Below are positions 33,447 to 51,420 of a DNA stretch of 64,000 nt, piece after piece (the stretch's first letter is position 1; each line of letters begins with the position of its first letter). A program made the translations under genes and the position numbers. The notes beneath the pieces are model-generated. The model was given only the letters and a program-made list of their open reading frames with translations, ran no database searches and had not been told where the DNA came from. This DNA comes from Bacteroidaceae bacterium. Lineage in GTDB: Bacteria; Bacteroidota; Bacteroidia; Bacteroidales; Bacteroidaceae. The stretch lies in assembly GCA_036655555.1 (NCBI GenBank), contig JAVVPX010000001.1, positions 2,513 through 66,512 of the forward strand. Reading direction: 5' to 3'.

Positions 33447-35174
33447 ATGAATCACAAATGGAATTATCAACTCCCTACACAAGAACAAATAGATGCAAGC
33501 CTAAACCTCTCTAAGGAAATAGGAATCAGTCCTATCCTTTGCAGGCTTTTATGCAAACGAGGAATAAATTCAGCCACAGAAGTGAGAAACTACTTCCGTC
33601 CACAACTCTCCGATTTACACGATCCCTTTTTAATGAAGGATATGGACAAGGCTGTTGAACGACTCAATCAAGCTTTAGGGAGGAAAGAACGTATTTTAGT
33701 TTATGGAGATTACGATGTAGACGGCACTACTGCCGTATCATTAGTTTATCGGTTCTTACAGCAATTTTATTCCGATATAGATTATTATATTCCCGACCGA
33801 TACGACGAAGGATATGGCATATCTATCAAAGGAATAGACTATGCCGTAGAATGTGGAGTCAAGTTGATTATCGTATTAGACTGCGGAATTAAAGCTGTCA
33901 ATGAGATTGCTTATGCCAAAGAAAAAGGTATCGATTTTATTATCTGCGATCATCATGTGCCGGATGAAATACTTCCGCCTGCCGTAGCTATTTTAAACGC
34001 AAAGCGCAAAGACGCTACTTATCCTTATAAGCATCTCTCAGGATGTGGAGTGGGATTTAAATTAATGCAAGGCTTTGCCATTAACAATGGCATTCCTTTT
34101 CGGGAACTTACTCCCCTACTCGATTTAGTAGCGGTAAGTATCGCTTCGGATATTGTTCCCATCATGGGCGAGAATCGTATCCTAACTTATCATGGACTAA
34201 AGCAACTCAATTCCAATCCAAGCGTAGGACTCAAAGCTATTATTGATATTTGTGGATTGAGTGAAAAGGAGATTACAGTAAGCGATATTGTATTTAAGAT
34301 AGGTCCTCGAATTAATGCTTCAGGGCGCATAGAGAATGGAAAAAAAGCGGTAGACTTACTCACAGAGAAAGACTTATCGGCTGCTTTAGAAAAAAGTAAT
34401 CAAATCAATCAATATAACGAGACTCGCAAAGACTTGGATAAGGCTATGACCGAAGAGGCGAATCATATTGTAGACTGTTTTGAGGATTTTAAAGATCAAC
34501 GTTCCATTGTTATCTATAATCCGGAGTGGCACAAAGGAGTTATTGGCATTGTAGCTTCCCGATTAACAGAAGTTTATTATCGTCCTGCCGTAGTACTTAC
34601 CCGTACTAATGATATGGCTACCGGTTCCGCTCGTTCGGTATCGGGGTTTGATGTATACAAAGCAATAGAGCATTGTCGAGATTTATTAGAAAACTTTGGT
34701 GGACACACCTATGCGGCAGGATTGTCGATGAAAATAGAGAATGTAGATTTGTTTACTAAACGATTCGAGGAATATGTATCACAACATATACTTCCCGAGC
34801 AAACAAACGCTACCGTAGATATTGATGCTGAAATAGATTTCAAAGATATTACTACAAAGTTCTACAACGACTTAAAAAAATTCAATCCCTTTGGACCTGA
34901 TAATCGCAAACCTGTTTTTTATACTCAGCACGTCTACGATTATGGTACAAGTAAAGTAGTGGGGCGAGAACAAGAACATATTAAATTGGAGCTAGTAGAC
35001 GATAAATCAAACAATGTAATGAACGGAATTGCTTTCGGGCAAAGTTCTCAAGCTCGATATATAAAGACAAAACGTTCCTTTGATATTTGCTATTCTATTG
35101 AGGAGAACACACATAAGCGTGGAGAAGTGCAGCTACAAATAGAAAGCATCAAGCCATCAAATAAAGATTTCTAG
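33447..35174 (+). CDS. recJ: Single-stranded-DNA exonuclease RecJ
   Basis: YGDYDVDG, LDCG, CDHH, PRINASGR, GSARS, FGGHTYAAG. Confidence 0.97.
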   Translation: MNHKWNYQLPTQEQIDASLNLSKEIGISPILCRLLCKRGINSATEVRNYFRPQLSDLHDPFLMKDMDKAVERLNQALGRKERILVYGDYDVDGTTAVSLVYRFLQQFYSDIDYYIPDRYDEGYGISIKGIDYAVECGVKLIIVLDCGIKAVNEIAYAKEKGIDFIICDHHVPDEILPPAVAILNAKRKDATYPYKHLSGCGVGFKLMQGFAINNGIPFRELTPLLDLVAVSIASDIVPIMGENRILTYHGLKQLNSNPSVGLKAIIDICGLSEKEITVSDIVFKIGPRINASGRIENGKKAVDLLTEKDLSAALEKSNQINQYNETRKDLDKAMTEEANHIVDCFEDFKDQRSIVIYNPEWHKGVIGIVASRLTEVYYRPAVVLTRTNDMATGSARSVSGFDVYKAIEHCRDLLENFGGHTYAAGLSMKIENVDLFTKRFEEYVSQHILPEQTNATVDIDAEIDFKDITTKFYNDLKKFNPFGPDNRKPVFYTQHVYDYGTSKVVGREQEHIKLELVDDKSNNVMNGIAFGQSSQARYIKTKRSFDICYSIEENTHKRGEVQLQIESIKPSNKDF

Positions 35175-35178
35175 TACG

Positions 35179-37113
35179 ATGACTTATCATCAGATACTGA
35201 AACAATATTGGGGATATGATGAATTCAGAGGCATACAAGAAGACATCATTCAAAGCATTAGTCAAGGGAAAGATACCCTTGGACTAATGCCTACGGGAGG
35301 TGGAAAATCTATTACCTTTCAAGTACCGGCGTTAGCACAAGAAGGTTTGTGCATTGTAGTTACCCCCCTTATCGCCTTGATGAAAGATCAAGTACAGAAT
35401 CTTCGCCAACGAGGCATCAAAGCTGTTGCTATCTATTCGGGGATGAGTAGACAAGAGATTATTATTGCTTTAGAGAACTGTATTTTTGGTGATTACAAGT
35501 TCTTATATGTTTCGCCCGAGCGATTAGATACAGACATATTCAAGGTCAAACTTCGGGCTATGAAAGTGAGTATGATTACTATCGACGAATCTCATTGTAT
35601 CTCTCAATGGGGTTATGATTTCCGACCATCATACTTAAAAATTGCTGATATTCGACAACTATTACCGAATGTTCCCGTATTAGCACTAACCGCCACTGCT
35701 ACTCCCGAAGTGGTGGAAGATATTCAAGAACGTTTGCTCTTTAGGAAGAAGAACGTGTTTAAGATGAGCTTTGAACGGAAAAATATCGCATATATCGTAC
35801 GTAAGGCAGATAAAAAAGAAGAGGAACTACTACACATACTTAATCGTATGTCGGGTAGCGCAATTGTATATGCACGCAGTAGGAAAGAGACAAAAGAACT
35901 TACCAAGTTGTTGCATCATAACAATATCACAGCCGAATATTATCATGCGGGATTATCGAATGAAGCAAAGGACGACCGACAAAAGAAGTGGCAGATGGGA
36001 GAAGCACGAGTAATGGTAGCTACCAATGCTTTTGGTATGGGAATAGATAAGGCGGATGTTAGATTAGTTATTCACATGGGAATGCCCGATTCGCCCGAAG
36101 CTTATTTTCAAGAAGCAGGAAGAGCAGGCAGAGATGGAGATAAAGCGTATGCCGTAATGCTCTATACAAACACCGATAAAAGTAACGTAAGCCGACGAAT
36201 AGCAAGTACTTTCCCGGAAAAAGAATATATTAAGGATGTATACGAACATCTAAATTATTACTACCAAATGGCGATGGGCGATGGACAAGGATGTACATTC
36301 GAATTTAATTTAGAAGAATTTTGTTATAAGTTTAAGTACTTTCCCGTGCCGGCAGACAGTGCGCTAAAAATACTTACTCAAGCGGGATATATTGAATATA
36401 CCGACGAACAAGATAATCCTTCGCGACTTATCTTTACTGTTCAGCGCGATGAACTTTATCGTGTTCGAGAACAAAACAAAGAGACCGAAGCTCTTCTTCT
36501 TGCCATACTTCGTAGTTACACCGGCGTATTCACTGATTATGTATATATCCGTGAAGATGCTTTAGCGCAGATGACAGGACTTACCCGCGAACAGATATAT
36601 GAGCTACTAATTTCATTGTCACATCGACATATTCTCGATTACATTCCTCGTAAGAAAACTCCATTCGTAGTCTATACTCGGGAACGAATAGATGTTGGTC
36701 ACCTCCATATTTCTAAAGCAGTTTATGAAGATCGCAAAGAGAAATATACAACCCGCATTCAAGCAATGCTTCAATATGTGAATGACAACACTGCTTGCCG
36801 AAGCAGATATTTGCTTCGCTATTTTGGAGAAAAGAATCTTCACAACTGTCAACAGTGCGATGTTTGTCTGTCGAAGCACTCTTCCAAACTAAAGACAGGA
36901 GAATTTAATAGTAAACAAGAGCTCATTTTGCAAGCCTTGAACAAGCAATCTTTCTCTATTCAAGACTTAATAGAACAACTTCACCCGAATACCGAAACCG
37001 AGAAAGAACATTTTTTGACGGTTCTCGAATATCTTATAGATGCTAAGGAGCTGATAATGGATAACGACAAAATAAAGATAAACGAACTACATTCCCAACG
37101 GGAACTTCAGTAG
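35179..37113 (+). CDS. recQ: RecQ-family ATP-dependent DNA helicase
   Basis: MPTGGGKS, DESHCISQWGYDFRP, ATNAFGMGIDK, QEAGRAGRDG, Zn-binding CR...CQQCDVC. Confidence 0.95.
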   Translation: MTYHQILKQYWGYDEFRGIQEDIIQSISQGKDTLGLMPTGGGKSITFQVPALAQEGLCIVVTPLIALMKDQVQNLRQRGIKAVAIYSGMSRQEIIIALENCIFGDYKFLYVSPERLDTDIFKVKLRAMKVSMITIDESHCISQWGYDFRPSYLKIADIRQLLPNVPVLALTATATPEVVEDIQERLLFRKKNVFKMSFERKNIAYIVRKADKKEEELLHILNRMSGSAIVYARSRKETKELTKLLHHNNITAEYYHAGLSNEAKDDRQKKWQMGEARVMVATNAFGMGIDKADVRLVIHMGMPDSPEAYFQEAGRAGRDGDKAYAVMLYTNTDKSNVSRRIASTFPEKEYIKDVYEHLNYYYQMAMGDGQGCTFEFNLEEFCYKFKYFPVPADSALKILTQAGYIEYTDEQDNPSRLIFTVQRDELYRVREQNKETEALLLAILRSYTGVFTDYVYIREDALAQMTGLTREQIYELLISLSHRHILDYIPRKKTPFVVYTRERIDVGHLHISKAVYEDRKEKYTTRIQAMLQYVNDNTACRSRYLLRYFGEKNLHNCQQCDVCLSKHSSKLKTGEFNSKQELILQALNKQSFSIQDLIEQLHPNTETEKEHFLTVLEYLIDAKELIMDNDKIKINELHSQRELQ

Positions 37114-38532
37114 ATACCAAACTACAAACAGTAGTATCCAAGCCAAAAAAATGCAAAAAGAATATCGCCAAGTATATTTCAGTAAAGAAACATACGAAGA
37201 TTGTTTGTCGTACTGCAACATATACGACAAGACCAAGGGCAGATAAAAAAGGAAAGGACTAATCGCATTCGTCGTACTATCTCCTATTCGATAAGCGCAT
37301 TGAGTCCATTCGGGAGTTATACCCATAGCAGCAAACATGGGTACAAATATAAAAGAGATAAGAACCCATTTAGAAGTAGAAGATGTTATAATAAGATTTA
37401 TTACAGCCGTGAAAAGGATGAAGAGCAACAATGCACTTAACCCCGTTACTCGAAGGGAAGAAAACAAATTAGCACTAAAGACAGCAAAGCATTTATCTAA
37501 ATGGGAATACTCTATGCAGGCAAACATTTGAGAAGCAAAGAAAATAATTACAAAATAAACAGAGAGTAAAGACATTGGTTGCGACAATCCTTTGATAACA
37601 TCTGAATCTGAGCGATAACGACCTGAAGCGAAACCGTAAACAAGCCCCATTAATCCGATACCAAAAGAGAGTAAGAATATTGTTCCGGCAATAAAAGGCG
37701 AACGAGTTATACCTCCGGTAATTCCTCTTAGAATGCCCCACGGTGATAAGGTGGCAAACGCAATAATAAGCACATAAAATCCGCCTACTAATAAAGATAA
37801 ATACAAAGCTCTCCGCTCTTTGCCGGATAATTGTTTGTATCCGTTAAAACTACTCTTCCCTTCGTACGCACCCAACAGCGGAGATAAATACTTCTTCGTT
37901 AGCCAATAAATAACTCCTCCAATAATAAAAGTAGAAATAGACATGAAATAATAATTAGAAAATGCGCCTACATTACTTTGATGCAACCCTGCGGCTTCTT
38001 GAGTGTAGCGAGCTAACAAAGGATCGAGAGTATTCAAAAATAAATTGGCACTAAAGCCGCACGACACGGAGACGTAGGCTGTTATAATGCCTGCGATTGG
38101 ATGCAAACCTACTGAATGAAACAAAATAGCGGCAATAGGGATTAAAATAATATATCCGGCATCGCCAATCACATTGGAGACTAGTCCTAAAAGAATCACC
38201 AATATCATAACAAAAGATTTGTTCATCCGATCTTTTAATCCTTGTCGAATGCACACGTTAATAAGTCCGGCGTGTTCTGCTACTCCAATGCCCAAAAGAG
38301 TAACCATCACCATTCCTAAAGGAGCAAAGTCGGTAAAATTACTAACTACGTGACGTAGCCACCAACGTATGCCTTCGGGACTAAGCAAACTTTGTACTTT
38401 GATAACTTCCCCTGTACCCGGATGCGTAACCTTCAGTTCGTAGACATCTAATATCCACGAAAGAAAAACAACCGTGAGCATAAGCAACAAAAACATCGTT
38501 GCCGGGTGAAGTATCTTAGTTTTATTCTTCAT
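37087..38532 (-). CDS. AbgT-family transporter (p-aminobenzoyl-glutamate / YdaH-MtrF-like)
   Basis: HPATMF, SLLSPEGIRW, NFTDFAPLG, HPIAG, AYRIGDSTTNAISP. Confidence 0.9.
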   Translation of the reverse strand: MKNKTKILHPATMFLLLMLTVVFLSWILDVYELKVTHPGTGEVIKVQSLLSPEGIRWWLRHVVSNFTDFAPLGMVMVTLLGIGVAEHAGLINVCIRQGLKDRMNKSFVMILVILLGLVSNVIGDAGYIILIPIAAILFHSVGLHPIAGIITAYVSVSCGFSANLFLNTLDPLLARYTQEAAGLHQSNVGAFSNYYFMSISTFIIGGVIYWLTKKYLSPLLGAYEGKSSFNGYKQLSGKERRALYLSLLVGGFYVLIIAFATLSPWGILRGITGGITRSPFIAGTIFLLSFGIGLMGLVYGFASGRYRSDSDVIKGLSQPMSLLSVYFVIIFFASQMFACIEYSHLDKCFAVFSANLFSSLRVTGLSALLLFILFTAVINLIITSSTSKWVLISFIFVPMFAAMGITPEWTQCAYRIGDSTTNAISPFLFYLPLVLSYMLQYDKQSSYVSLLKYTWRYSFCIFLAWILLFVVWYLLKFPLGM

Positions 38533-39253
38533 CAGGTTCTAAATTATCTATATCAAGAACACGCAATTGCAAAGCACGCACTACCAAACAAGTGGCATTT
38601 ACCCCTGCTCGCTCATCTCCCGCAAAGAAACGATTGATTAAGTCTACTTGACGTTTTTCTAAAGACTTCACGCCAAAAGGCATTCCTTTGAGATTGGCTA
38701 TCATTTCTTTGGTATAACCCAGTGCCAAATGACGAAGGAAACGTTCATCATATTCGTCTATATCGTAATTGATTACTGTTTCCTGACGTTTAATATCGTT
38801 AGCGAGAGAACGTTTGAAGCGTTCCACTATCTTTTCCAATATAGGATAATTAAAAACTAACTTTTTGCCATCCATCACTGCCTGTACATCTGTTTTGGTA
38901 AGCAGTTCTCCGGTCTTTAAGATAATGCCATCGGCTCCCGCATTAAGTACATCTACCCATAACTTCTCGTTTAGTACTTCGCCCGTAAAGATAAGTACTC
39001 TCACCTCTTTGTATTTGTCACGAATGTTTTTACAAATATCCACGCCTATAGTAGTGGAGCCTCCTAAACCTAAGTCGAGCAATACAAGATCCGGAACTTG
39101 TAACTCTATGAGCGACCAGAACTCTTTTTCTGTCATTGCCGTACCAATCACTTCGGCATTAGGTATCTCGTGACGAAATATTTCCTCCGTACCTTTTAGC
39201 TCTAGTTTTACGTCTTCTACAATGATTACTTTAAATTTAGTGTCTTCTATCAT
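38522..39253 (-). CDS. Response regulator (REC plus divergent LuxR/NarL-like HTH; DUF5932-like by recall)
   Basis: Start reassigned to ATG 39253 (MIEDTKF). Motifs IIVED, DLVLLDL (phospho-Asp), LIFTG, IILK, and C-terminal FLRHLALGYTKEMIA HTH. Confidence 0.85.
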   Translation of the reverse strand: MIEDTKFKVIIVEDVKLELKGTEEIFRHEIPNAEVIGTAMTEKEFWSLIELQVPDLVLLDLGLGGSTTIGVDICKNIRDKYKEVRVLIFTGEVLNEKLWVDVLNAGADGIILKTGELLTKTDVQAVMDGKKLVFNYPILEKIVERFKRSLANDIKRQETVINYDIDEYDERFLRHLALGYTKEMIANLKGMPFGVKSLEKRQVDLINRFFAGDERAGVNATCLVVRALQLRVLDIDNLEPDEE

Positions 39254-39267
39254 CTTTTTCTGTATTA

Positions 39268-42200
39268 TTATCTCTTTGGAATTGTGAAATACACTGTGAA
39301 CCCTCCTTGTGGGCAAGATTCCGCATTGATACGGCAACCTCTTCGTCCGGCAAACTCATCGTGTTCACGAACTATCTGTTTGCACAACAAATATTCCGTA
39401 CCTCTCAGTCGTCCTTCATCATCTGTTGTAAGGAGTGAAAGCGAAGGATAAAAGAGTAGGTTCAATTGCTCCGTAGAACGTTCCCTTCGGCTATCTGTAA
39501 AAAGGAAACGAACATACTCTCCATCGGTAATTGCCTCTAAATTAAGCCTGCCATCTTCGGCAAACGAAAGTGCTTCGTCGATTAAATTCTCTAACAAGTA
39601 TTTTAGCTGAACGTCATCTCCCGAAATCTTTAAGTTAGAAGGGCTTAGGCAAAGCTCTACATTGTTGGATATACGCTTAACCGCTTTCTTAAAATACTTA
39701 TGAGTAGCTGTAAAAAGCTCATCAACTTCAATTGTGCTTCGTCTAAAGGTGGCTGCTTCTAGTTGACGAGCAGCGCAAGAACTTAAGATTGTAAAAATGC
39801 TCTTGTAATAGTCTATCAATTCATTTATAGACTTTATGTTTTCTTTTTCTTCGTTCAAGGTAGCGAATGCTCCGCTATTGAGTTTGTCGATAATTTGCTT
39901 TATCTTATTAGGGTAATAGATAGTTTCGTGTTTAATGGTGGACAAACAATTATCTAATACCATATTTTGAATATGCAATAAGCCATCTTCCCATGAAGCA
40001 CGTCGTACCTCGTCTTGGGTAGATTCTATGTCCCGATAGCTATTTGCTAGTTTAACTACCGCGTTAAATACCACGATTCCTACGTATCTAGCTATCAATT
40101 CAAACAATAAACGATCGGCTTCCTCCCCTATTCCTTCTTCTTTTATCAATGTTAGTACTCCCACACAACGGGAAGTTTCTCCTACTTCTATCAACAAAGG
40201 CATTGCTCCAATATCGTTATGGGATAGAAAAGTCTGCTTCGCGAAACAGTTTTTCATCAACTCTTCTATTTTTTCCTTGTCTTCGGCAGGTAGTTCAGAC
40301 GAATGATTAAACACGCATTCTAATTTTTGTGTATCTTCGTTGAATACTGCAATTGCCATTTTATTGATAATCAACAATTCGTTAACGGCATCGAACACAT
40401 CATCTACTATTCGCTGAGGAATTTCGTTCAAACTTATTTCTTCTTCCTGCACATTTTCTTTCGAAATAGGGAGAGGTACTAAAGAAGCTGCGAATATTTG
40501 TCGATTAATCTCTAGTATTTGTTCCAAGTTACGACGATAAAGGAGTGGTTTACGCAGATAAATGAAATAATAACCTACTAGCAACACGAGCAAAAGTACA
40601 ATGCAAAGCAACATACCCACTTCTTTGTTGTTAGTAGAGTGCTCTAGGCTACGACAATATTCTGCTAAAGAAAAATCTTCGCCAAGTAATTTATATAAAG
40701 CACTATAAGCTGCATTATTGTATTTATAAGCTTCCCAATCCTTTATGCCAAGAAAAGCAACAGCCGCCTCATTTCGTATATCGAGAATAATATGAAAGTC
40801 GGTGTCGAACATTTTATTCCACCAATCTATCTCAGCAGGCGTACCTCTTCCCTTTAATTCCATTTTATTATTACTTCCGGAATAAAGCAAATAATGAGTA
40901 TTAAGTTTGCTCATTGCTGAATCTATATATTGCAAAGTCAATGGATAATTTCCTTCTACATTACTATAATAGGCAGAGTCGGCAAAAAGGGAGGCTTCAC
41001 TCAGTAATTGATCGTATTCCATATTGGAAGTACCGGCTAACGAATCGGTTTGTGACAAAAGTGATTGCGTTTGAGCGGAACGAGTGCAAGCAACAAACGA
41101 ATTTCCTAACGTGAACACACAAAGCCATAATAACAATGTTTTGCGTATGCCTATCGGTAAACGAAAAGAGAAGCGACTTCCTTTGCCTAATTCACTTTCG
41201 ACATTGAACCTGCATACATTAAATATTTCGTTCGTCTTACGATACTTTTCGATAATTCCTCTACAATTCATTAAACCAAAGCCGCTACCTTTATTCTTCT
41301 TTAGTTCTTCGGCATCTTCTCCCACCGACATTCCTATTTGTCCCGAATCATATACCTTTTCGCCAACAATGCGTGCAATATCTTCTTGAGACAATCCCAT
41401 ACCGGTATCTTCTATTGATATTTCCACATAATTATTTTCACCCTTAGCCTCTATTTTCACTATTCCGCCTTGTGGAGTATATTTACGGGCATTGTCCATT
41501 AAAGTATTTATCATGAACAGTGTCAACGCTCTATCGGCTTTCACAATTTCGTTCGTCTCTGCTATTTGTAGTGACTGTTGTTTCATTTCAAAAGTCTTGC
41601 GACCTTTAGCAACCACATCGAATAGCTCTGACAGGGGAAAGTTCTCTATATTTAAACTCAATGAACCTTGTTTTGTTTTTATCCAAAGAGCCAGAATGTC
41701 ATTGTACTCATTTATTTTTGTGATAAGCTCATCTATATAAGCATATTTGTCTTTCCGCATCGTTTCGTTGGAAAAAAACTTATCAGCCATAAGTTTGCTC
41801 ACTTCGTTAATCACTCTATCCATAAAAGGATTGATGCCATTGGCAATAGCCAAGCAGGCTTTCTTTACTAAGTTCTGTCGCTTGTTTTCACGAATGTGTT
41901 GTTCGTAAACGTAACGTTGTTTATCGAGGCGATGACGCTCATCGCTCAAAGAGATAAGCATTAATCCGTTGTTGAGCGTCCATGCAATGTAGGGAGTGAT
42001 GATGTTGGCTAATGCCTTTTCATCTTTCGATAGTTTATGTTGCGAATATAGTTCTAGCTGCCCAATAGGATTAGTTTTATCCGGAACAGTCAGATTAAAC
42101 ACGGATTTTATTCTTTTATCCGCGACATCCTGTTCTTCGTTCTCTTCCGAGCCTACCGTTTTAATGCGGAATGAAGAGATACCAAAAAGGAGTTGCATAT

Positions 42201-43734
42201 CTTCGAGATTAGCTAAAGAGATAGCACTTATAATATCCTCTTCGCTATTAGCATCCGACGGTATCGAAGCGGTAATCTTTTGACAAACATCGAGCGTCAA
42301 CCTCAATCTTTCGATATGCTTTCGGTTACGTTGCTTAGAACGTGAGTTAAAAATCCAGAAAAGGAATATCAATAAAATTAATCCGATAAAGAAAGAGAGC
42401 GACACCATATTGAGTTTTTTATCTTCTTTCTCCAAAGCTTGATAGCGGCTTTCCAATTCCTTGTCCTGACGAGTATTATTAAGTATATCGAGCAATACAT
42501 TGCGATTATAATCCGACCCGAGTTTCATACCCAAACCTGCGTACGATACGCTCAGTTGTTCCCTTATACGAGCTATCCATTCGGGAACAGTCTTCACTTC
42601 CTTGTGATTAATCCACGAAAGTTCTCGGCAAGCCGTGTTTTCTTGAGAATATAATTTCAACACATCTACACTATCATTTTCTCCGGTATAATAGCGTCGA
42701 TGATGATAGTTGACGCAAGCCAAAGCGTGCGAGAGAGAATCTAAAGCTTCGGCATATTGTCCATGCGTATTATAGTATTGTCCGATAGAAACATAAGTGC
42801 CCGCTATCTGATATACATCTTCGTATTTCTTGAACTTTATTAAGGCTAATTGCGCCAACCTCAATGGCAATAAATCGCTCGATAAACAATAAGAATCTTT
42901 CAATAAGCGAAGGGCGTGCGGACGTTTTTCTTCCACTAAATTCATTATTATTTCATCGTTAAGAAGGTTAGAAAGACCTTGCAAAGCGTTTGCCTCAAAA
43001 TAAATATAATCACTTCCCGAAGCTGTAAGCAGGGTAATTAATAATTCATCAAATTCTTTGAGCGATTGAGTTTCGTTAGAATTAGAACCTGTCAGCCCGG
43101 CAGAACCTTTGATATAGTGAGAATAAAGATATTGAGCGGTATCTGCCAAAAACGCTTCCGTTTCTTTAATCTCGTTTATAGAAGCAATCGCCTCGGGCTT
43201 CTGCTGCAAATAATAATAGTAGATTGCCGATACAATATTGAACTCCGACTTTGCGTAGTTGAGTCGCTTCGTTTCGTGAACATCTACAAAGAGTAAACTA
43301 TCTTCGTTGATGCGCTTCATCCTCCTAATAGCACTATTGCGACTATCATAGTACTCTTTGTTCATCGCCGTACGTTGATATACTTTCATCAATCCTATAT
43401 CCGCGATAAGTAATTCGAGTTCGTTGACCGTACAGTCATATACTTCGTGATATAATTTCACGGCCACTTCAAAATCCATCTGCATGAATCTACAAAAGCC
43501 TAAATTATTGCACGCTTCTGCCATTCCTTTGTCGTAATGGTTAGCCAATAAATAAGCATTTAGAGCTGTCTGATAAGAAGAATCTATATTTTTGTATCGA
43601 AGACTATACGCACGATTGTTGAGAGAGTCGAGCAAACGTACTTCGGTAGTTGGTGCCGTCTCACCACAAGAGAATGCTGTTGTAATGAACAATAGCAAGC
43701 ATAAAACAAACAAGACAGGACGGGTCTTTTTCAT
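39268..43734 (-). CDS. Giant tandem two-module sensor histidine kinase (DUF5112/DUF5113-type by recall)
   Basis: Two repeats of [periplasmic helical domain - TM - GAF-like - DHp - HATPase]. Module 1 has N/G1/G2 boxes; module 2 has the H-box KHET. Confidence 0.85.
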   Translation of the reverse strand: MKKTRPVLFVLCLLLFITTAFSCGETAPTTEVRLLDSLNNRAYSLRYKNIDSSYQTALNAYLLANHYDKGMAEACNNLGFCRFMQMDFEVAVKLYHEVYDCTVNELELLIADIGLMKVYQRTAMNKEYYDSRNSAIRRMKRINEDSLLFVDVHETKRLNYAKSEFNIVSAIYYYYLQQKPEAIASINEIKETEAFLADTAQYLYSHYIKGSAGLTGSNSNETQSLKEFDELLITLLTASGSDYIYFEANALQGLSNLLNDEIIMNLVEEKRPHALRLLKDSYCLSSDLLPLRLAQLALIKFKKYEDVYQIAGTYVSIGQYYNTHGQYAEALDSLSHALACVNYHHRRYYTGENDSVDVLKLYSQENTACRELSWINHKEVKTVPEWIARIREQLSVSYAGLGMKLGSDYNRNVLLDILNNTRQDKELESRYQALEKEDKKLNMVSLSFFIGLILLIFLFWIFNSRSKQRNRKHIERLRLTLDVCQKITASIPSDANSEEDIISAISLANLEDMQLLFGISSFRIKTVGSEENEEQDVADKRIKSVFNLTVPDKTNPIGQLELYSQHKLSKDEKALANIITPYIAWTLNNGLMLISLSDERHRLDKQRYVYEQHIRENKRQNLVKKACLAIANGINPFMDRVINEVSKLMADKFFSNETMRKDKYAYIDELITKINEYNDILALWIKTKQGSLSLNIENFPLSELFDVVAKGRKTFEMKQQSLQIAETNEIVKADRALTLFMINTLMDNARKYTPQGGIVKIEAKGENNYVEISIEDTGMGLSQEDIARIVGEKVYDSGQIGMSVGEDAEELKKNKGSGFGLMNCRGIIEKYRKTNEIFNVCRFNVESELGKGSRFSFRLPIGIRKTLLLWLCVFTLGNSFVACTRSAQTQSLLSQTDSLAGTSNMEYDQLLSEASLFADSAYYSNVEGNYPLTLQYIDSAMSKLNTHYLLYSGSNNKMELKGRGTPAEIDWWNKMFDTDFHIILDIRNEAAVAFLGIKDWEAYKYNNAAYSALYKLLGEDFSLAEYCRSLEHSTNNKEVGMLLCIVLLLVLLVGYYFIYLRKPLLYRRNLEQILEINRQIFAASLVPLPISKENVQEEEISLNEIPQRIVDDVFDAVNELLIINKMAIAVFNEDTQKLECVFNHSSELPAEDKEKIEELMKNCFAKQTFLSHNDIGAMPLLIEVGETSRCVGVLTLIKEEGIGEEADRLLFELIARYVGIVVFNAVVKLANSYRDIESTQDEVRRASWEDGLLHIQNMVLDNCLSTIKHETIYYPNKIKQIIDKLNSGAFATLNEEKENIKSINELIDYYKSIFTILSSCAARQLEAATFRRSTIEVDELFTATHKYFKKAVKRISNNVELCLSPSNLKISGDDVQLKYLLENLIDEALSFAEDGRLNLEAITDGEYVRFLFTDSRRERSTEQLNLLFYPSLSLLTTDDEGRLRGTEYLLCKQIVREHDEFAGRRGCRINAESCPQGGFTVYFTIPKR

Positions 43735-43843: not shown

Positions 43844-44323
<480 letters not shown>

Positions 44324-44333
44324 TTATTTGTTT

Positions 44334-46139
44334 TTAATTTTTAAACGGTTTGTATTCCTTTCCTCCTCCTTCGTAACCGGAATTCTTAAAGAACTCAACG
44401 AATGTCAGACGCATAGGATGTACCATAGCACCTAAAGCATTCATAAACATATTGATGGAATGGCCTATCAAAAAGATAAGTACCATCACTATCGGACCTG
44501 CTATTGCGTTGTCCGGACTCATTCCTACGGCTAATTCATTGAATACACTAGCCAAAATACCACCTGATAAACCTAGGGCAAACAGACGTACATAAGAAAG
44601 AATGTCACCCAACAGACCGGTAGCCATGTTGTAAGTATCCCAAAGTCCTAGTCCGATATTAAGAAATATATTCTTGCCCGGACTATTGAGCAGGTAAATC
44701 ATAAGAGCAGCTACTCCCAAGATGACAAGATGTACAGTCCCTCCCATTGCTAATACGGAAGGAAGAGCAAAAGCAAAAGCAGTGCTCAACAAAACAATAA
44801 TCCAACCGATAGTGGCTATTGCATACTTGAAACCAAATTGAATGGTTTGATTCACCGCCTTCAATGCCATACCAAAGATAATCTGAATAGCACCCAATAT
44901 CAACGAGAAATTAAACATCCATTGATTGTCTTGAAAAAATAACTCCCTCATCTTTTGAAAGAAAGGAATGTCCGTGCCATAGAGATTGAAGCCAAAGAAA
45001 GTACCGGTAAGCATTCCGCAAAAGAAAGTGGAAATGCCTAGAATTTGCACCAAAGTAAGTATTGGTTTCATTGAGACACTAATATTCTTTGCCAGCATCT
45101 TGTAAAGAGTAACTCCTATCAACATAAACAATCCGTAGCCCGAATCGCCCAAACAAAGCCCAAAAAAGAGCATAAAGAAAGGTGCGAAAAATGGAGTTAA
45201 GTCAAGTTCATTGTATTTCGGAAGCATATATAACTTACAGATAGGTTCAAACAGACGGAAGAAACCTTTATTGTTCAATTCAATTGGAACATTATCTTCC
45301 GGCGTTGGGTTAGAGACCTCAAAATAAATATGCTGCGTTTCCAAATAGTTTACTATCTCCGGCGTTTTAGCAGCAGGTGCCCATCCTTGCAATAGCATCA
45401 ATTTGTCTTCCACTGCCTTTTCTGTATTCAAGATTACCTTAGAAAACTCAATGTTTGAATGAGTATTTTTCAAAGCTTCTTCCAACGAAAGTAGATTTCC
45501 CTCTCCCAAATTCTGTAACTCCTTATCGGCTTCCTCAATCTTAGCACGAGTTTGCTCAACCAAGGCATTTACCTTACTCAACGAATAAGAAAAGGGCTTC
45601 ACCGACTCTAATTCCACTTCAGGAAGTTCATTAGATTTAGTTATAGTAACAAAATAAGTTTTAGAACCTATCTTATTAATTTCTACTGCATTATACTCTT
45701 TAAAAGAATCTAAATCAAAATCGCTACCGGAGCTTATATAAAAATTTATCCGATACCCTGCTTCTTGCAAACGTTTTAGATCCGAAGGTTCAAAGTCGCC
45801 CCAAACCTCCATAGTCGTCTGTTCTTTCAAATACAATTGCAGCTGCTGATTTAATTGCGTCTTCTCTGCCAACAACGCCTCTACTTTATCCAAAGTTTGA
45901 AGTCCGCGAGTAGCATCCGCACCTTCCTCTTTATCTGTCACCTTTAAGCTAGTTAGCAATTTATGAGTAGCACTAATGCGGGAAGAAAGCTTAATATTTT
46001 CTTGCAATTCAGCATTATCGGGTGTTCCTTGCATCTTTTCGGCAATATGAACCACTCCTAATTCCCGAATATTCAGCAGGAACTCCTCATAATCTTTGTA
46101 GAAAACAAGGAAAGTAAACTTTTTCATTTTGGTAATCAT
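44334..46139 (-). CDS. ntpI: V/A-type ATPase subunit I
   Basis: LPKYNELD, GDSGYG, GDILSYVRLFALGL, HPMRLTFVEFF. Confidence 0.95.
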   Translation of the reverse strand: MITKMKKFTFLVFYKDYEEFLLNIRELGVVHIAEKMQGTPDNAELQENIKLSSRISATHKLLTSLKVTDKEEGADATRGLQTLDKVEALLAEKTQLNQQLQLYLKEQTTMEVWGDFEPSDLKRLQEAGYRINFYISSGSDFDLDSFKEYNAVEINKIGSKTYFVTITKSNELPEVELESVKPFSYSLSKVNALVEQTRAKIEEADKELQNLGEGNLLSLEEALKNTHSNIEFSKVILNTEKAVEDKLMLLQGWAPAAKTPEIVNYLETQHIYFEVSNPTPEDNVPIELNNKGFFRLFEPICKLYMLPKYNELDLTPFFAPFFMLFFGLCLGDSGYGLFMLIGVTLYKMLAKNISVSMKPILTLVQILGISTFFCGMLTGTFFGFNLYGTDIPFFQKMRELFFQDNQWMFNFSLILGAIQIIFGMALKAVNQTIQFGFKYAIATIGWIIVLLSTAFAFALPSVLAMGGTVHLVILGVAALMIYLLNSPGKNIFLNIGLGLWDTYNMATGLLGDILSYVRLFALGLSGGILASVFNELAVGMSPDNAIAGPIVMVLIFLIGHSINMFMNALGAMVHPMRLTFVEFFKNSGYEGGGKEYKPFKN

Positions 46140-46741
46140 GCCTCTACCTCCTTTCTTTTCTCCTGAAGAGATTTCAATATCTTTTGCGAAGATTTAGAGA
46201 GGTTCTCTTCGTCTTCCATAAATCGTTTTATCTTACGCAAAGCGTCTTGATAACCCGGTATCTGTACCTTTTCAAAAAGATTAACTTTTTGAGTAGTTTT
46301 TTTGCGTGCATGTTCAAGTAAATTCAGCTTAGCTAAAATAAATTCTCGTTCAATAGCTGTTTGCGCTAATTTCTTAAGCAAATGTATTCCGTCAGGATAC
46401 CATTTAGGACTATTAAACAAACTAAAAGGACGAATCTCAAAGTCCACATTTTCTAACTGAGGAACTCTGACTCCGGCAATCTTCTTTATGCCAAGATGAA
46501 CGTTACTTACTTTGATTAATGAAGCATCAAATTCATTCCAAAGCGCAAACATGGCTTCATAAGCTTGAATTTGTTTTTCAAGCTTCTCTTCCAATTCCAC
46601 AGCTTCCTCTTTACATTTCTTAACGTCCATACGCAATGCGCTTTCCTTATTCTTAATGATAGGAAGCGTACGCACGCGAATTTTAAGTTGCTTTTCGAGT
46701 TGCTGAAGCGAAGTCTTATTATATTGAAATTTTATAGCCAT
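46136..46741 (-). CDS. ntpD: V/A-type ATPase subunit D
   Basis: LPIIKNKE, KTTQKVNLFEKVQIP; operon position. Confidence 0.93.
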   Translation of the reverse strand: MAIKFQYNKTSLQQLEKQLKIRVRTLPIIKNKESALRMDVKKCKEEAVELEEKLEKQIQAYEAMFALWNEFDASLIKVSNVHLGIKKIAGVRVPQLENVDFEIRPFSLFNSPKWYPDGIHLLKKLAQTAIEREFILAKLNLLEHARKKTTQKVNLFEKVQIPGYQDALRKIKRFMEDEENLSKSSQKILKSLQEKRKEVEA

Positions 46742-46753
46742 AGTTATTTGAAC

Positions 46754-48073
46754 TTACTTAGTCCAGTGTTCATCAATCAAATCTTTCTTTATATTCACTT
46801 CTTCGGGACGGAAATACTTTCCGAACAATCCCCACGTAACGTCTAACATTTCGGTAGTATCAAGATTAACATCGATAGCTAGCAGTTGAGTTGCGTAGTC
46901 TTTAGCAAAAGCCAAAGTACGCTCATCGTAATTGGTCAAATCGAAACCGTTCTCCATCTTTGTTTTTGCGTTTGCAGCATCAGCATATAGACGAACAGCG
47001 GCATTCATTACTTGTGGATGATCTTTACGAGTCTTCTTTCCGCTTACCAATTGCTTTAAGCGGGATAAAGAACGGAATGGATCTACAATAACTTTACCAA
47101 TATCGCTGTCTCTACGCAAGAACAATTGTCCTTCCGTGATATATCCTGTATTATCCGGTACTGCATGCGTAATATCTCCTCCCGATAGAGTGGTGACGGC
47201 AATAATAGTAATAGAGCCGCCTTCGGGGAATTGAACTGCTTTCTCGTATATCTTTGCTAAATCGGAATAGAGTGAGCCCGGCATAGAATCCTTAGAAGGA
47301 ATCTGATCCATACGATTAGATACAATAGCTAAAGCATCGGCATACGAAGTCATGTCGGTGAGTAATACAAGCACCTTCTCGTTATTTTTAACCGCAAAGT
47401 ATTCGGCGGCAGTCAATGCCATATCCGGAATAAGCAGACGCTCAACAGGAGGATTTTCTGTTGTATTCACAAAGCTAACAATTCTATCTAATGCTCCTGC
47501 GTTGGAGAACACATTCTTAAAATAAAGGTAATCGTCGTTCGTCATACCCATACCACCAAGAATAATCTTATCTGTTTCGGCACGTAAAGCTACGTTTGCC
47601 ATCACTTGATTAAACGGTTGGTCGGGGTCAGCGAAGAAAGGAATTTTTTGTCCCGATACCAGTGTATTATTTAAGTCGATGCCTGCAATACCGGTGGCGA
47701 TTAGTTCCGAAGGTTGTTTCCTTCGTACCGGATTTACCGATGGACCGCCAATTTCTACTTCTGTTCCTTCAATCTGTGGTCCGCCATCAATTGGGTCGCC
47801 GAAAGCATTAAAGAAACGTCCGGCAAGTTGTTCACTAACTTTCAGTGTAGGAGCTTTTCCTAAAAACACTACTTCTGCGTTAGTGGGAATGCCTTCCGTA
47901 CCTTCAAATACTTGCAAAGTAACTTCATCTCCCATAATCTTTACCACCTGAGCTAATTTACCGTTTACGGTCGCTAGTTCATCGTAGCCAATATCAGTAG
48001 CTTTCAGTGCGCAAGTAGCTTTGGTTATTTGATTTATCTTAGTATATATCTTTTGAAATACTTTTGTTGCCAT
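46754..48073 (-). CDS. ntpB: V/A-type ATPase subunit B
   Basis: QVFEGT, GQKIPFF, LTDMTSYADAL, PDNTGYITEGQ, SLSRL. Confidence 0.95.
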   Translation of the reverse strand: MATKVFQKIYTKINQITKATCALKATDIGYDELATVNGKLAQVVKIMGDEVTLQVFEGTEGIPTNAEVVFLGKAPTLKVSEQLAGRFFNAFGDPIDGGPQIEGTEVEIGGPSVNPVRRKQPSELIATGIAGIDLNNTLVSGQKIPFFADPDQPFNQVMANVALRAETDKIILGGMGMTNDDYLYFKNVFSNAGALDRIVSFVNTTENPPVERLLIPDMALTAAEYFAVKNNEKVLVLLTDMTSYADALAIVSNRMDQIPSKDSMPGSLYSDLAKIYEKAVQFPEGGSITIIAVTTLSGGDITHAVPDNTGYITEGQLFLRRDSDIGKVIVDPFRSLSRLKQLVSGKKTRKDHPQVMNAAVRLYADAANAKTKMENGFDLTNYDERTLAFAKDYATQLLAIDVNLDTTEMLDVTWGLFGKYFRPEEVNIKKDLIDEHWTK

Positions 48074-48086
48074 AATCTATCTTCCT

Positions 48087-49844
48087 TTATCCGATTTTCT
48101 TTTCGGCGATTAATGAATCCAATTCCCTCTTATACTCCTCATACTTATCAGACTTAAATTCCGAATAGTTCATTTGTTTGCAGATATTAATCATCTTTTT
48201 GAAGTAATCCATGACTTCATTAAAGTTGTCGAAACCAAAGTCGGTATGACAAATATCAATCACCATATTTAAGATAACTTCTTGACGCTCCATTGGGGTC
48301 ACTGCGTCTATATCATCGAACGCGTCTTGCTGCAAAATAACAAAGTCGATAAGTTCTGACTTCCAGAAAGTAACGTGATACTCTACCGGAACGCCATCAT
48401 CGCCAAGAATGTTGATTTGTTCGGCAATTTCTTTACCTCTAAGTAAGCGAGTTTTCACTTCGTTTACTTTATCTATCCATTCTCCATTGATATGTTTCTG
48501 TATATATTCCTCAAACTCAGGATACTCCAAATATTTAGAATATGAATCTATCGGATTCACGGCAGGATAACGTTTTCTGTCTGCTCGTTCTTGCTCTAAC
48601 GCATAAAAACAACGAGCAACTTTCTTTGTATTTTCCGTTACCGGTTCTTTTAAATTACCGCCTGCGGGAGAAACTGTTCCTATAAAGGTAATAGAACCTG
48701 TCTCACCATTATTTAAAGTAACATATCCGGCACGACCATAGAAGTTAGAGATGATAGAAGAAATATCCATTGGGAAAGCATCCGGTCCGGGCAATTCTTC
48801 CATACGATTAGACATTTCACGCAAAGCTTGCGCCCAACGAGAAGTAGAGTCCGCCATCAATAATACCCTCAACCCCATTGCACGATAAAACTCTGCCATT
48901 GTCATTGCGGTATAAACTGAAGCCTCACGAGCCGCAACCGGCATATTGGAAGTATTTGCCACAATAATGGTTCGTTCAATTAGATTGCGTCCCGTATGTG
49001 GGTCAATTAAGTGAGGAAACTCTGCGAAGATTTCAACAACTTCGTTCGCCCGTTCTCCGCAAGCTGCCATAATTACGATATCGGCTTCTGCTTGTTTAGA
49101 TATAGCGTGCTGAAGCACTGTTTTTCCTGTACCAAACGGACCGGGAATAAAACCGGTTCCACCTTCTACTATCGGGTTTAGCGTATCGATAACTCTTACT
49201 CCGGTCTCCAATAGTTTGAAAGGTCTTGGCTTTATCTTGTAATTCGTCATAGCCTTCTTCACCGGCCATTTCTGAATCATATTCACATTAATGTCATTAC
49301 CGTCTTTATCTGTCAGCACAGCTACCGTTTCTTCAATGGTATAATCGCCTTCCTTTGCCAACGACTTAACGGTATAAGTTCCCTGAAAAACGAAAGGGAC
49401 CATAATCTTCAATGGTTGAAAATTCTCGTCTACTTGTCCCAGCCATGCAGAAGCTTTCACTTGATCGCCAACTTTTGCCAAGGGAATAAAATGCCATTTT
49501 TTTTCTTTATCTAAAGGGAAGGTATATTCTCCTCGTTTAAGGAACACACCCTCCATCTTATCCAAATCATTTTGCAAGCCATCGTAATTACGTGAAAGCA
49601 TACCCGGACCTAAAGTTACTTCTAACATATGTCCCGTAAACTCTGCTTCTGCTCCGACTTTCAATCCGCGTGTACTTTCAAATACTTGCACGTACACATT
49701 AATCCCTACAACTTTAATCACCTCTGCCATTAATCTGTCGCCGCCGGTTGAAATATAACAAATTTCATTCTGCGAAACAGGTCCGTCAACAATGAGAGTG
49801 ACCATGTTGGCTATAACGCCATTAACAGTTCCTTTTGTTGCCAT
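48087..49844 (-). CDS. ntpA: V/A-type ATPase catalytic subunit A
   Basis: Walker A GPFGTGKT, ACGERANE, ANTSNMPVAAREAS, DSTSRWAQALRE. Confidence 0.97.
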   Translation of the reverse strand: MATKGTVNGVIANMVTLIVDGPVSQNEICYISTGGDRLMAEVIKVVGINVYVQVFESTRGLKVGAEAEFTGHMLEVTLGPGMLSRNYDGLQNDLDKMEGVFLKRGEYTFPLDKEKKWHFIPLAKVGDQVKASAWLGQVDENFQPLKIMVPFVFQGTYTVKSLAKEGDYTIEETVAVLTDKDGNDINVNMIQKWPVKKAMTNYKIKPRPFKLLETGVRVIDTLNPIVEGGTGFIPGPFGTGKTVLQHAISKQAEADIVIMAACGERANEVVEIFAEFPHLIDPHTGRNLIERTIIVANTSNMPVAAREASVYTAMTMAEFYRAMGLRVLLMADSTSRWAQALREMSNRMEELPGPDAFPMDISSIISNFYGRAGYVTLNNGETGSITFIGTVSPAGGNLKEPVTENTKKVARCFYALEQERADRKRYPAVNPIDSYSKYLEYPEFEEYIQKHINGEWIDKVNEVKTRLLRGKEIAEQINILGDDGVPVEYHVTFWKSELIDFVILQQDAFDDIDAVTPMERQEVILNMVIDICHTDFGFDNFNEVMDYFKKMINICKQMNYSEFKSDKYEEYKRELDSLIAEKKIG

Positions 49845-49859
49845 ATATATTTTTATTTA

Positions 49860-50702
49860 TTACTTAAATTCAGCAGGAATTTGCACATCGTTCTTCAAAG
49901 ACTCTATAATCTTGCGGAACAACTCTCTTCCTTTTTCCTTATCTAAAGATATCCAACGCTCAATCATTTCCAATCTCAACAGAAAAGCGAATAACTTCTC
50001 TACCGTGAAATAATCAAAGAAAGCGGCATCTTCTATCCAATTCCATTTGAGCATATCAATTTTCTTCTCTCTTTCCACCAATTCTACCGTCTCACTTATA
50101 CGGAGTAAAGGTTCAAAATAATCTATTACTCCTTGAAGTCCAAAGTCTCGAGCATTAGAAGTGCGTATAGCTTCGCAGACTTCTGTCTGTCCCACAATAT
50201 TGGGAGCTACTTCTACTTTGTATTTTCGAGCAGTATAAGCCGTCAATAAATTATTAATGTTTAAATTGAGTTCAAACCACGAAGAGACAAACTTATTCTT
50301 GCAATTCATAGCATAGTCATAATAGTAACTAGCCAAGCTGTTGGTTGGCATAAATGACTCGTCTGCGTTGGATTGGAAATAAACAGAAATAAAAGAAGAA
50401 AGGTACGAGGGAATATTCTTGCTGCCTGCGTCTCCCTCTTTTACCGAAGTAATAAGAGCATTCAACTCCTCCGCAGAATAATTTCCCCGTGAATCTATAT
50501 TCGCGTCTTTATTATTCAACAGTTTAAGAATGTTCGCATTATCGAACTTAAGATAAAACAAGTCTACCAACTTCTTGTCTTCATTCGAAAGGTCAGCATA
50601 CAATTCTGTTTTGAAGTTAGCAACCGAGTAAGTCAGCTTTCCATCTTCCAACGAAAGTTCCGGCAATCCGGCTACTAAACAATAGTATTTACTCATGACC
50701 AA
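49860..50702 (-). CDS. DUF2764-family protein, probable V-ATPase subunit C equivalent
   Basis: YYCLVAGLPEL N-terminus; lies between subunits E and A. Confidence 0.75.
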   Translation of the reverse strand: MVMSKYYCLVAGLPELSLEDGKLTYSVANFKTELYADLSNEDKKLVDLFYLKFDNANILKLLNNKDANIDSRGNYSAEELNALITSVKEGDAGSKNIPSYLSSFISVYFQSNADESFMPTNSLASYYYDYAMNCKNKFVSSWFELNLNINNLLTAYTARKYKVEVAPNIVGQTEVCEAIRTSNARDFGLQGVIDYFEPLLRISETVELVEREKKIDMLKWNWIEDAAFFDYFTVEKLFAFLLRLEMIERWISLDKEKGRELFRKIIESLKNDVQIPAEFK

Positions 50703-50705
50703 CGC

Positions 50706-51296
50706 TTAAAACAACATTTCAACTAGTTGCGGACGAAGGAAAGACTTGAAATAATTTTCAAACTCCTCTGTTCCGAAATTCACCTTATAAGAACCATCGG
50801 CGGGAGAAATAGAAAATAAAGTTTTCATTCCATTCACTTGCTCAATCTTGACTTCTTTATCTAATAAGTTCTTAGCTTTAGAAGCAAAATAGTTAGTTAA
50901 AGTTTTGGCATCGGGAGTAGAAATAACGATGGGTTCATTACTAGACCATTTAGAAGCAAGCGAAAGTATAAAGTTGTTTAGATAATCTTTGTCTTGAACG
51001 AAATCTTTCACAGACTGAGCTATAATTTTATCATTTAGCAGAGAAGCTATTTCTGATTTCAACGCATTTACCGACTGTCCGGCAAACATTTTTAGCTCTG
51101 ATTTCGTGTTCTCATTTAATTCATTAGCCGATTTATGAGCATCGGCAATAATTGAATTAGCTTCTTTTTTAGCTTCGTCAATTATTCGTTGTGCCTCATC
51201 TTGAGCGTTCTTAATAAGTTTTTGTGCTTCTTCGTTTCCTTTTTCCACACCTTCATGGTAAATCTTATCAGTAAGCTCTTGAATCTTATTTTCCAT
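50706..51296 (-). CDS. ntpE: V/A-type ATPase subunit E
   Basis: Start reassigned to ATG 51296 (MENKIQELTDKIYHEGVEKG); coiled-coil N-terminus; C-terminal FLRPQL. Confidence 0.88.
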   Translation of the reverse strand: MENKIQELTDKIYHEGVEKGNEEAQKLIKNAQDEAQRIIDEAKKEANSIIADAHKSANELNENTKSELKMFAGQSVNALKSEIASLLNDKIIAQSVKDFVQDKDYLNNFILSLASKWSSNEPIVISTPDAKTLTNYFASKAKNLLDKEVKIEQVNGMKTLFSISPADGSYKVNFGTEEFENYFKSFLRPQLVEMLF

Positions 51297-51353
51297 ATTC
51301 ACAGATATTTTAAGGGGTTTGTATTCTCTTATTCTCATTTCCGAGAATCTTGC

Positions 51354-51361
51354 CAAAGATA
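51354..51361 (-). promoter_or_regulatory. -7 promoter box (TATCTTTG) for the V-ATPase operon
   Basis: Exact TAnnTTTG about 58 nt upstream of the subunit E start. Confidence 0.65.
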
Positions 51362-51420
51362 CAAAACTCAATCAGAATAAAAGAATTTATAATAGAAAAA
51401 GTAAGGAATGGTATAGAATT

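Follow-up and report, generated by a model that had tools for sequence, protein, structure and literature searches.

A 64,000-nucleotide stretch of a Bacteroidaceae genome (GenBank assembly GCA_036655555.1, contig JAVVPX010000001.1, positions 2,513 to 66,512; hereafter, the window) encodes on its minus strand a tandem sensor kinase of 1488 amino acids that carries two copies of a histidine kinase module with opposite losses. Module 1 keeps the ATP site and lacks the phosphoacceptor histidine, and module 2 keeps the histidine and has lost the ATP site. We consider it probable, at roughly 78%, that the two copies come together as a single asymmetric kinase. In it, the catalytic and ATP-binding (CA) domain of module 1 (CA1) would phosphorylate His1269 of module 2, and the phosphate would then pass to Asp60 of the response regulator encoded downstream.

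The original prediction, made from the sequence alone, had described the protein as an internal duplication, and comparison of its halves agrees. They align by BLASTP (E 5e-11, 18% over 606 columns), and a profile–profile comparison of kinase core 1 with core 2 gave a probability of 99.2 (E 2e-19). Pfam detected DUF5113 and HATPase_c twice each in this DUF5112/DUF5113 protein, and its side matches (Cpf1_PI-like, YbaJ, and Sublancin) all fell below the cut-off. One module order, namely a tetratricopeptide repeat (TPR) sensor, a transmembrane (TM) helix, a GAF-like domain, a domain for dimerization and histidine phosphotransfer (DHp), and a CA domain, is tandemly duplicated. An AlphaFold2 model of residues 300–1488 (70 sequences; predicted local distance difference test (pLDDT) 84.8, predicted template modeling score (pTM) 0.58) shows the same order twice: TPR helices and a long membrane-crossing helix come first, then an alpha/beta domain of GAF-like form, the DHp hairpin, and finally the CA domain. 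The gene and its parts, in window coordinates, are as follows.

39268..43734, minus strand: tandem sensor kinase gene, 1488 amino acids, with DUF5112, two DUF5113, and two HATPase_c (open reading frame (ORF) and Pfam).
43666..43734, minus strand: N-terminal signal peptide, lipoprotein type, Cys23 (sequence and hydropathy; of the 211 homolog N-termini inspected, 173 have a lipobox).
42409..43647, minus strand: periplasmic sensor 1, residues 30–442, a TPR superhelix made of DUF5112 and the first DUF5113 (AlphaFold2 and Foldseek).
42349..42405, minus strand: TM1, residues 444–462 (hydropathy; hydrophobic core of median 19 residues across homologs).
42025..42267, minus strand: GAF-like domain 1, residues ~490–570, an alpha/beta domain in the model, shortened or deleted in many lineages.
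41650..41943, minus strand: DHp1, residues 598–695, without the histidine; the equivalent Asn632 lies at 41841-41839 (WalK alignment and HK853 structural ranges).
41149..41649, minus strand: CA1, residues 696–862, ATP site intact (conservation and fold match to HK853).
41086..41154, minus strand: internal signal-peptide-like segment, residues 861–883, directly after CA1, ending at a lipobox-like Cys883.
40552..41016, minus strand: periplasmic sensor 2, the second DUF5113 (a short TPR) with TM3 (residues 1042–1060) and invariant Asn, Arg, Glu, and Tyr.
40120..40467, minus strand: GAF-like domain 2, residues ~1090–1205 (model; weak GAF_3 match, E 0.11).
39742..40029, minus strand: DHp2, residues 1236–1331, with the motif K-H1269-E-T-x-Y-Y-P; His codon 39930-39928.
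39271..39741, minus strand: CA2, residues 1332–1488, with the fold kept, the ATP boxes lost, and the docking helix conserved.

To profile conservation, 759 homologs were reduced to 599 distinct sequences by collapsing identical cores (an earlier set of 409 rows, 393 once 16 fragments were left out, included identities down to 28%). In module 2, His1269, Glu1270, and Pro1275 are each present in 599 of the 599 homologs, and N1257, D1261, N1262, S1265, and K1268 of helix 1 are likewise invariant. The ATP-site residues of CA1 are retained almost throughout (N748 in 599, D776 in 597, G778 in 597, G780 in 596, G818 in 595, G820 in 596, and G852 in 596). CA2 has DxGxG at G1 in 0/599 and GxG[LIM] at G2 in 0/599, and its N-box Asn position is occupied by Glu, Ala, Gln, or other residues. 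The complementary losses noticed in the original prediction thus hold family-wide, and the motif positions it gave were all correct, i.e., LMDNARKYT at residues 745–753 (41502-41476), EDTGMG at 775–780, KGSGFGL at 815–821, and ESELGKGSRF at 846–855 in module 1, and His1269, ENLIDEAL at 1382–1389, FTDSRR at 1412–1417, and RGTEYLLC at 1444–1451 in module 2. Its reading of the module-1 H-box region as lacking a histidine also stands, this copy being His-free between residues 614 and 946.

Both CA domains retain the kinase fold, CA1 matching HK853 (Z score 20.4, root-mean-square deviation (rmsd) 1.9 over 154 residues) and CA2 matching the CA domain of ThkA (Z score 18.5, rmsd 2.0 over 140 residues), and the CA2 residues D1373, F1428, Q1453, and R1456 are conserved at 89–99%. 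The module-1 position equivalent to the H-box His is Asn632, within one residue. Among the Pfam families listed, HisKA matched neither DHp1 nor DHp2, and the H-box of both modules was assigned from alignment and fold. Canonical class I kinases carry the His and the ATP site on one DHp-CA unit, an arrangement found in neither module here; an H-box His followed by an acidic residue (H+1) occurs in module 2 only, and a Bergerat-fold CA with intact N, G1, G2, and G3 boxes in module 1 only. A second histidine, His1254, was considered as the phosphoacceptor and rejected, being present in 120/120 close relatives but in only 522/599 homologs overall. Thr/Asn-Pro occurs at module-1 positions 635–636 in 267/599 homologs, under half, a pattern that lends weak support to a possible separate phosphatase face on module 1.

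Evidence that the two halves pair comes from coevolution and from modeling. In a mean-field direct coupling analysis (DCA) over both DHp regions (599 sequences, effective number 251), the two strongest couplings are both cross-module (V645-I1307 and I614-A1246), and A682-I1272, C627-C1320, and I671-I1278 are further cross-module pairs near the top. Of the 40 antiparallel cross-module pairs that rank highest, 26 fall in the hairpin register of a four-helix bundle (9.4 expected), as do 19 of the top 40 parallel pairs (9.2 expected). Thirteen of the top 20 cross-module pairs were in register, compared with 0–9 in 12 re-paired controls, and a scan of all register centers gave a single peak at 1947–1949. 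A complex model of residues 596–864 with residues 1232–1488 scored 0.86, whereas the best of three controls scored 0.00; 116 of 157 solved complexes reached the mark used for this score, as did 2 of 215 mismatched pairs. The runs of the model share at least 89% of their contacts, with partner pLDDT of at least 85, and the interface includes CA1 residues 819–830 and CA2 residues 1449–1457.

The couplings also suggest which CA domain serves which helix. The His-face residues K1268, I1272, and N1276 couple to module-1 helix 2 (L681, A682, and N675), and the far-face residues T1271, C1263, L1260, and Q1256 couple to module 2's own helix 2. According to a review, the handedness of the DHp bundle decides whether the His adjoins the CA domain of its own or of the sister unit (PMC6798134), and by this rule the couplings point to a trans arrangement. 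The best CA1–DHp2 coupling joins S817 of the G2 box to I1272 (z 5.8), and the best couplings of CA2 to a helix go to module-1 helix 1 (L622-E1457, z 6.4; R619-E1382, z 5.6). Computation thus favors a single four-helix bundle of DHp1 and DHp2 in trans geometry, with each CA domain predicted to sit on helix 1 of the other module, and only with trans geometry would a working site survive the losses. The original prediction had expected one such bundle with CA1 docked at His1269, and the complex model places CA1 against the His1269 helix; of the intramolecular pseudo-heterodimer with one asymmetric site that it proposed, the DHp1:DHp2 part has this computed backing. Neither coevolution nor the two-chain model can tell whether the partners belong to one chain or to two. 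Some solved chains match the single-chain model over a span that runs from module-1 helix 1 through to the end of CA2 (4u7n_B, range 328–1189, 146 residues, rmsd 2.5), which may be an indirect hint of within-chain pairing, as read from the ends of the aligned range. The lengths of the membrane-to-DHp linkers covary between modules (rho 0.82 over 265 proteins, related proteins not being independent), with both short in 107, both long in 132, and one short in 26.

The same couplings bear on a reading in which whole chains form a homodimer through DHp1:DHp1 and DHp2:DHp2, with module 1 acting as an ATPase or kinase and module 2 as a phosphotransferase of the ChpT/Spo0B kind. Module 2 does have the ChpT/Spo0B anatomy of a His helix with a dead CA fold, and the within-module couplings, which are likewise in register (13 and 10 of the top 20), could include homodimer contacts. 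The strongest couplings, however, are cross-module and are lost upon re-pairing, CA2 couples to module-1 helix 1, and module 1 has no conserved His with which to begin a relay, so that we regard this arrangement as improbable.

A signal-controlled phosphatase or pseudokinase, in which the ATP of CA1 would be allosteric and His1269 would be fed by another kinase or would only dephosphorylate, appears more doubtful still. The failure of HisKA to match either DHp is in its favor, as are the presence of DivL among the nearest structures and of five other HATPase-type loci in the genome. The Glu at H+1 of the H-box, which is needed for autophosphorylation, is invariant here, module 2 has Tyr at H+4 in place of the Thr/Asn linked with phosphatase activity, and the G2 box couples to the His helix at I1272, all of which speak against it.

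Several points weigh against one asymmetric kinase or against the way it would be assembled. CA2 varies in length (105–164 residues in 60 diverse homologs) and is still detected in 598/599, hence it is not simply dispensable. A His is found at position 632 in 22/599 homologs and at 635 in 89/599, with an acidic residue directly after His632 in only 2 of those 22. The choice of register window (1947 ± 6) followed an initial DCA run on 394 sequences, which makes the p-values generous, and a DCA split by clade was uninformative (268 vs 14 sequences, the smaller group giving no signal). The complex score of 0.86 may reflect resemblance to solved homodimeric kinases, its controls having been other than DHp1:DHp1 and DHp2:DHp2, and the complex model and the DCA draw on overlapping sequences and are not independent. 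The confidence of the single-chain model is modest, as its pTM indicates. At the segment that joins the modules, lipobox and AxA-like site are both missing in 78 of 245 homologs, and a straight, uncut receptor could not, in the model, fit the tether of about five residues that follows CA1. As for His632, it was rejected as an ancestral active site, since in a tree of 201 sequences it is scattered over derived clades and alternates with Tyr and Asn; in trans geometry it would face the dead CA2.

We infer the following mechanism, every catalytic step of which is to be read as a proposal. The ancestor would have been a trans-phosphorylating homodimer, and duplication with fusion would have left one of its two active sites free to decay. 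Between them, the DUF5113 TPR copies would build a single composite site, whose ligand is likely a peptide or protein, and the joint would be the old signal peptide of the second gene, exporting sensor 2. A ligand at the paired TPR domains would shift TM1, TM3, and the coiled coil, upon which CA1 would leave a parked place on module-2 helix 1 and phosphorylate His1269, and Asp60 of the regulator would take the phosphate from His1269. CA2 would serve as a non-catalytic brace on the other face of the bundle via its conserved docking helix.

The joint was analyzed in 282 homologs, of which 245 remained after leaving out 37 with an unmatched anchor motif. It has basic residues and a hydrophobic core of median 10 residues (19 in TM1, 15 in TM3, and 14 in the N-terminal signal), and it looks like a retained signal peptide rather than a plain TM helix. 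A lipobox occurs in 63/245, compared with 21 ± 5 among shuffled sequences, and an AxA-like site in 119/245, compared with 92 ± 6. The spacing from CA1 to the joint is only about five residues in 186/245 homologs, and the CA docking site in the model lies about 50 helical residues, an estimated 75 Å or so, beyond the GAF domains. Because this short tether and the distant docking site clash in a straight receptor, either the joint is cut and its stub released or the receptor is bent. From these motifs, cleavage of the joint by signal peptidase has about even odds, the alternative being that the motifs are relics. The "single-chain" kinase of the original prediction is not borne out in the form proposed: one ORF encodes both cores, yet with the signal-peptide features of the linker after CA1 the mature product may be two chains.

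If the precursor is cut, it would give two chains in a fixed 1:1 ratio. The fuller picture of such a proreceptor, in which signal peptidase cuts the precursor to yield a 1:1 obligate asymmetric kinase with one trans site, one composite TPR pocket, and an AbgT-derived membrane protein acting as co-sensor and not as transporter, we offer tentatively. The same chemistry could also be performed by an uncut chain, with two chains swapping DHp1 and DHp2 partners or with the receptor bent to bring CA1 to the membrane. That the cores share one ORF in 217/220 loci is consistent with it, as is the blindness of the pairing evidence to chain identity, and the five-residue tether would be accommodated by bending or swapping as it would by cleavage. 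The signal-peptide traits kept by the joint (the short core, and lipobox and AxA-like sites above shuffles) argue the other way, and swapping by itself would leave CA1 tied at the membrane; we treat an uncut receptor as a possibility short of even odds.

Sensor 1 was modeled by AlphaFold2 with high confidence as an all-helical domain (pLDDT 93.9, pTM 0.92), and Foldseek placed LGN and Rap, TPR proteins that bind peptides, at the head of its rows (E 3e-6 to 5e-4; template modeling score 0.37–0.53), a likeness of common fold that serves at most as a lead for a peptide ligand. An atlas search with sensor 2 returned only TPR clusters, all under 0.9. Cross-sensor couplings are in register at an offset of 596 (R411-N1007, G402-K998, and L427-L1023), although this signal is weaker than that of the DHp domains and the top 60 shows no overall enrichment of sensor–sensor pairs. 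The original prediction had proposed two different sensors acting as an AND gate. Two periplasmic parts do exist; both are DUF5113 TPR copies, and because these copies of one domain couple in register, one composite TPR site fits better than a gate in which each sensor has its own ligand and both are required. The long TPR array of DUF5112 is indeed found in sensor 1 and absent from sensor 2, and the two DUF5113 copies carry distinct sets of invariant polar residues, as separate ligands would suggest. The small size of sensor 2 (only ~130 residues) and the partial absence of DUF5112 in some lineages (two loci) speak against the gate, and we think it unlikely; it differs from the asymmetric kinase with a composite site only in its input and is compatible with the same kinase core.

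In sensor 2, Asn925, Asn945, Asn988, Asn1006, and Asn1007 are near-invariant (95–100%). Asn ladders in TPR receptors bind peptide backbones, and this set resembles them. The linker holding GAF-like domain 1 spans 14–147 residues in 60 diverse homologs. The GAF-like domains have been lost repeatedly (four loci and the tree of 201 sequences), usually from both modules or from module 1 first, giving versions of 990–1200 residues with linkers down to 14–20 residues.

The kinase gene is followed by two genes on the same strand, in an order (kinase, regulator, AbgT) that is conserved.

38522..39253, minus strand: cognate response regulator, 243 amino acids, a receiver with DUF5932, NarL-like (Asp60, Thr90, and Lys113, counted from the Met at 39253).
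37087..38532, minus strand: AbgT-family membrane protein, overlapping the stop of the regulator gene.

The regulator gene starts 14 bases downstream of the kinase gene and was found downstream in 76/77 and 57/59 loci with room for it. Its Asp, Thr, and Lys are conserved in 134/134 homologs, indicating an intact phospho-Asp site, and it remains at least 60% identical across genera, whereas its kinase falls to ~30%. The AbgT-like gene is present in 76 of 80 Bacteroides loci and in 54 of 60 diverse loci. The protein is full-size here and in Bacteroides and half-size in most non-Bacteroides loci, with only 195–252 residues in 46 of those 54, where the N-terminus and one internal segment are kept. 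The retention of half a transporter beside the kinase suggests that the AbgT-like protein is possibly an accessory sensor or co-sensor derived from a transporter.

The kinase gene is common to most Bacteroides and Prevotella relatives, with the named loci belonging to Bacteroides and kin, and is single-copy and near-core in the Bacteroidaceae. DUF5113 was detected in 119/150 Bacteroidaceae genomes and 22/27 genera, nearly always twice, and DUF5112 in 111/111 genomes of one genus, whose proteins are named Prevotella in the source records. DUF5113 was not found in 298 Bacteroidales genomes of other families, a search with module 2 of 396 genomes outside the family gave no match at E 1e-11, and a 300-genome sample of the phylum gave ordinary kinases only, at E 1e-9 or weaker. 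The three loci among the 220 in which the cores do not share one ORF are accounted for by a contig end, a frameshift, and an in-frame stop. Apparent two-gene forms were considered and rejected as natural: L093, L173, L184, and L201 break near the joint by small indels, two of them with further frameshifts, and L097 is broken by one in-frame stop. None of these five gives module 2 a signal peptide of its own, and they are likely sequence errors or pseudogenes.

The closest published system is FasB/FasC/FasA of group A Streptococcus. In the model that its authors propose, which draws on genetic and two-hybrid results, His246 of FasC is phosphorylated by the kinase domain of FasB within a heterodimer (PMC12675982). 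As in the tandem kinase, where the roles are assigned by sequence, one kinase-like subunit gives the CA domain and the other the His, and one downstream regulator is served; FasB and FasC heterodimerize through DHp, a pairing that is computed for the tandem kinase. FasB/FasC comprise two genes with six-TM sensors and a ComE-like regulator, in contrast to one gene with TPR sensors, GAF domains, and a signal-peptide-like joint, and the CA of FasC is deletable and FasB still has His residues, whereas here the dead CA is kept. In CheA3/CheA4 of Rhodobacter sphaeroides, the ATP domain and the phospho-His are also on separate units, neither of which works alone (PMC3591291). These are class II kinases with an HPt-type P1, and form a transient complex of separate soluble proteins with no shared DHp bundle; HPt (P1) and CheW-like P5 domains had no Pfam match in the tandem kinase, whose His sits in a DHp helix. 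RetS–GacS of Pseudomonas aeruginosa forms a heterodimeric DHp four-helix bundle with trans phosphorylation, but that heterodimer is inhibitory and its partners also homodimerize (PMC8498467), whereas here the heterodimer would be the sole active form. The tandem kinase belongs to none of these systems, given its one gene, TPR sensors, dead CA, and internal segment resembling a signal peptide.

Module 2, with a His-bearing DHp and a degenerate CA fold, is like ChpT/Spo0B, which are stand-alone soluble homodimers, whereas module 2 is fused, membrane-anchored, and coupled to DHp1. HK853, WalK, and SrrB share the DHp with a Bergerat-fold CA, the acidic H+1, the N, G1, and G2 boxes, and cis or trans action set by handedness (PMC6798134), but are homodimers with two equivalent sites, while each function occurs here once.

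Mammalian membrane adenylyl cyclases keep one active site. They are an analogy only, a homodimeric enzyme having become a single-gene pseudo-heterodimer with unrelated fold and chemistry (PMC9433096).

The chemistry is split in Rv0600c/Rv0601c, too. These are described as two sensor kinases (PMC3544749). For the split chemistry, FasB/FasC is already a published precedent with two genes. DUF5113 was not found in a search of full-text literature (few subscription papers covered; supplements and locus-tag tables outside its scope), which returned for DUF5112 a single preprint, where the name is given to one domain of a STAND protein from cyanobacteria. The same search, again without supplements, brought up no paper dealing with this family, nor any describing a tandem kinase from one gene whose modules have complementary losses.

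Homodimeric kinases act asymmetrically, one site at a time, and their symmetry hinders dissection. The tandem kinase, if it works as proposed, would be a naturally and permanently asymmetric kinase whose kinase face and silent face could be mutated separately. It would be nature's counterpart of the laboratory test in which His-minus and ATP-minus mutants of GacS complement (PMC8498467). As it is, DUF names are all that a conserved signaling system of major gut bacteria has been given, and HisKA models miss it. Were the precursor cut, its maturation would gain a step like that of a proreceptor, of which we know no case among two-component systems.

Around the operon, promoter and terminator scans were at chance (26 vs 21 ± 4, and 5 vs 5). 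A V/A-type ATPase operon (43844-51371), named by reading the sequence, shares the strand of the kinase gene and is found 109 bases upstream of it; upstream neighbors vary in most homolog loci, and its link to the kinase is probably not conserved. RecJ-like and RecQ-like genes (33447-37113, named in the same way) converge on the operon from the other side, and the RecQ-like ORF overlaps the stop of the AbgT gene by 27 bases.

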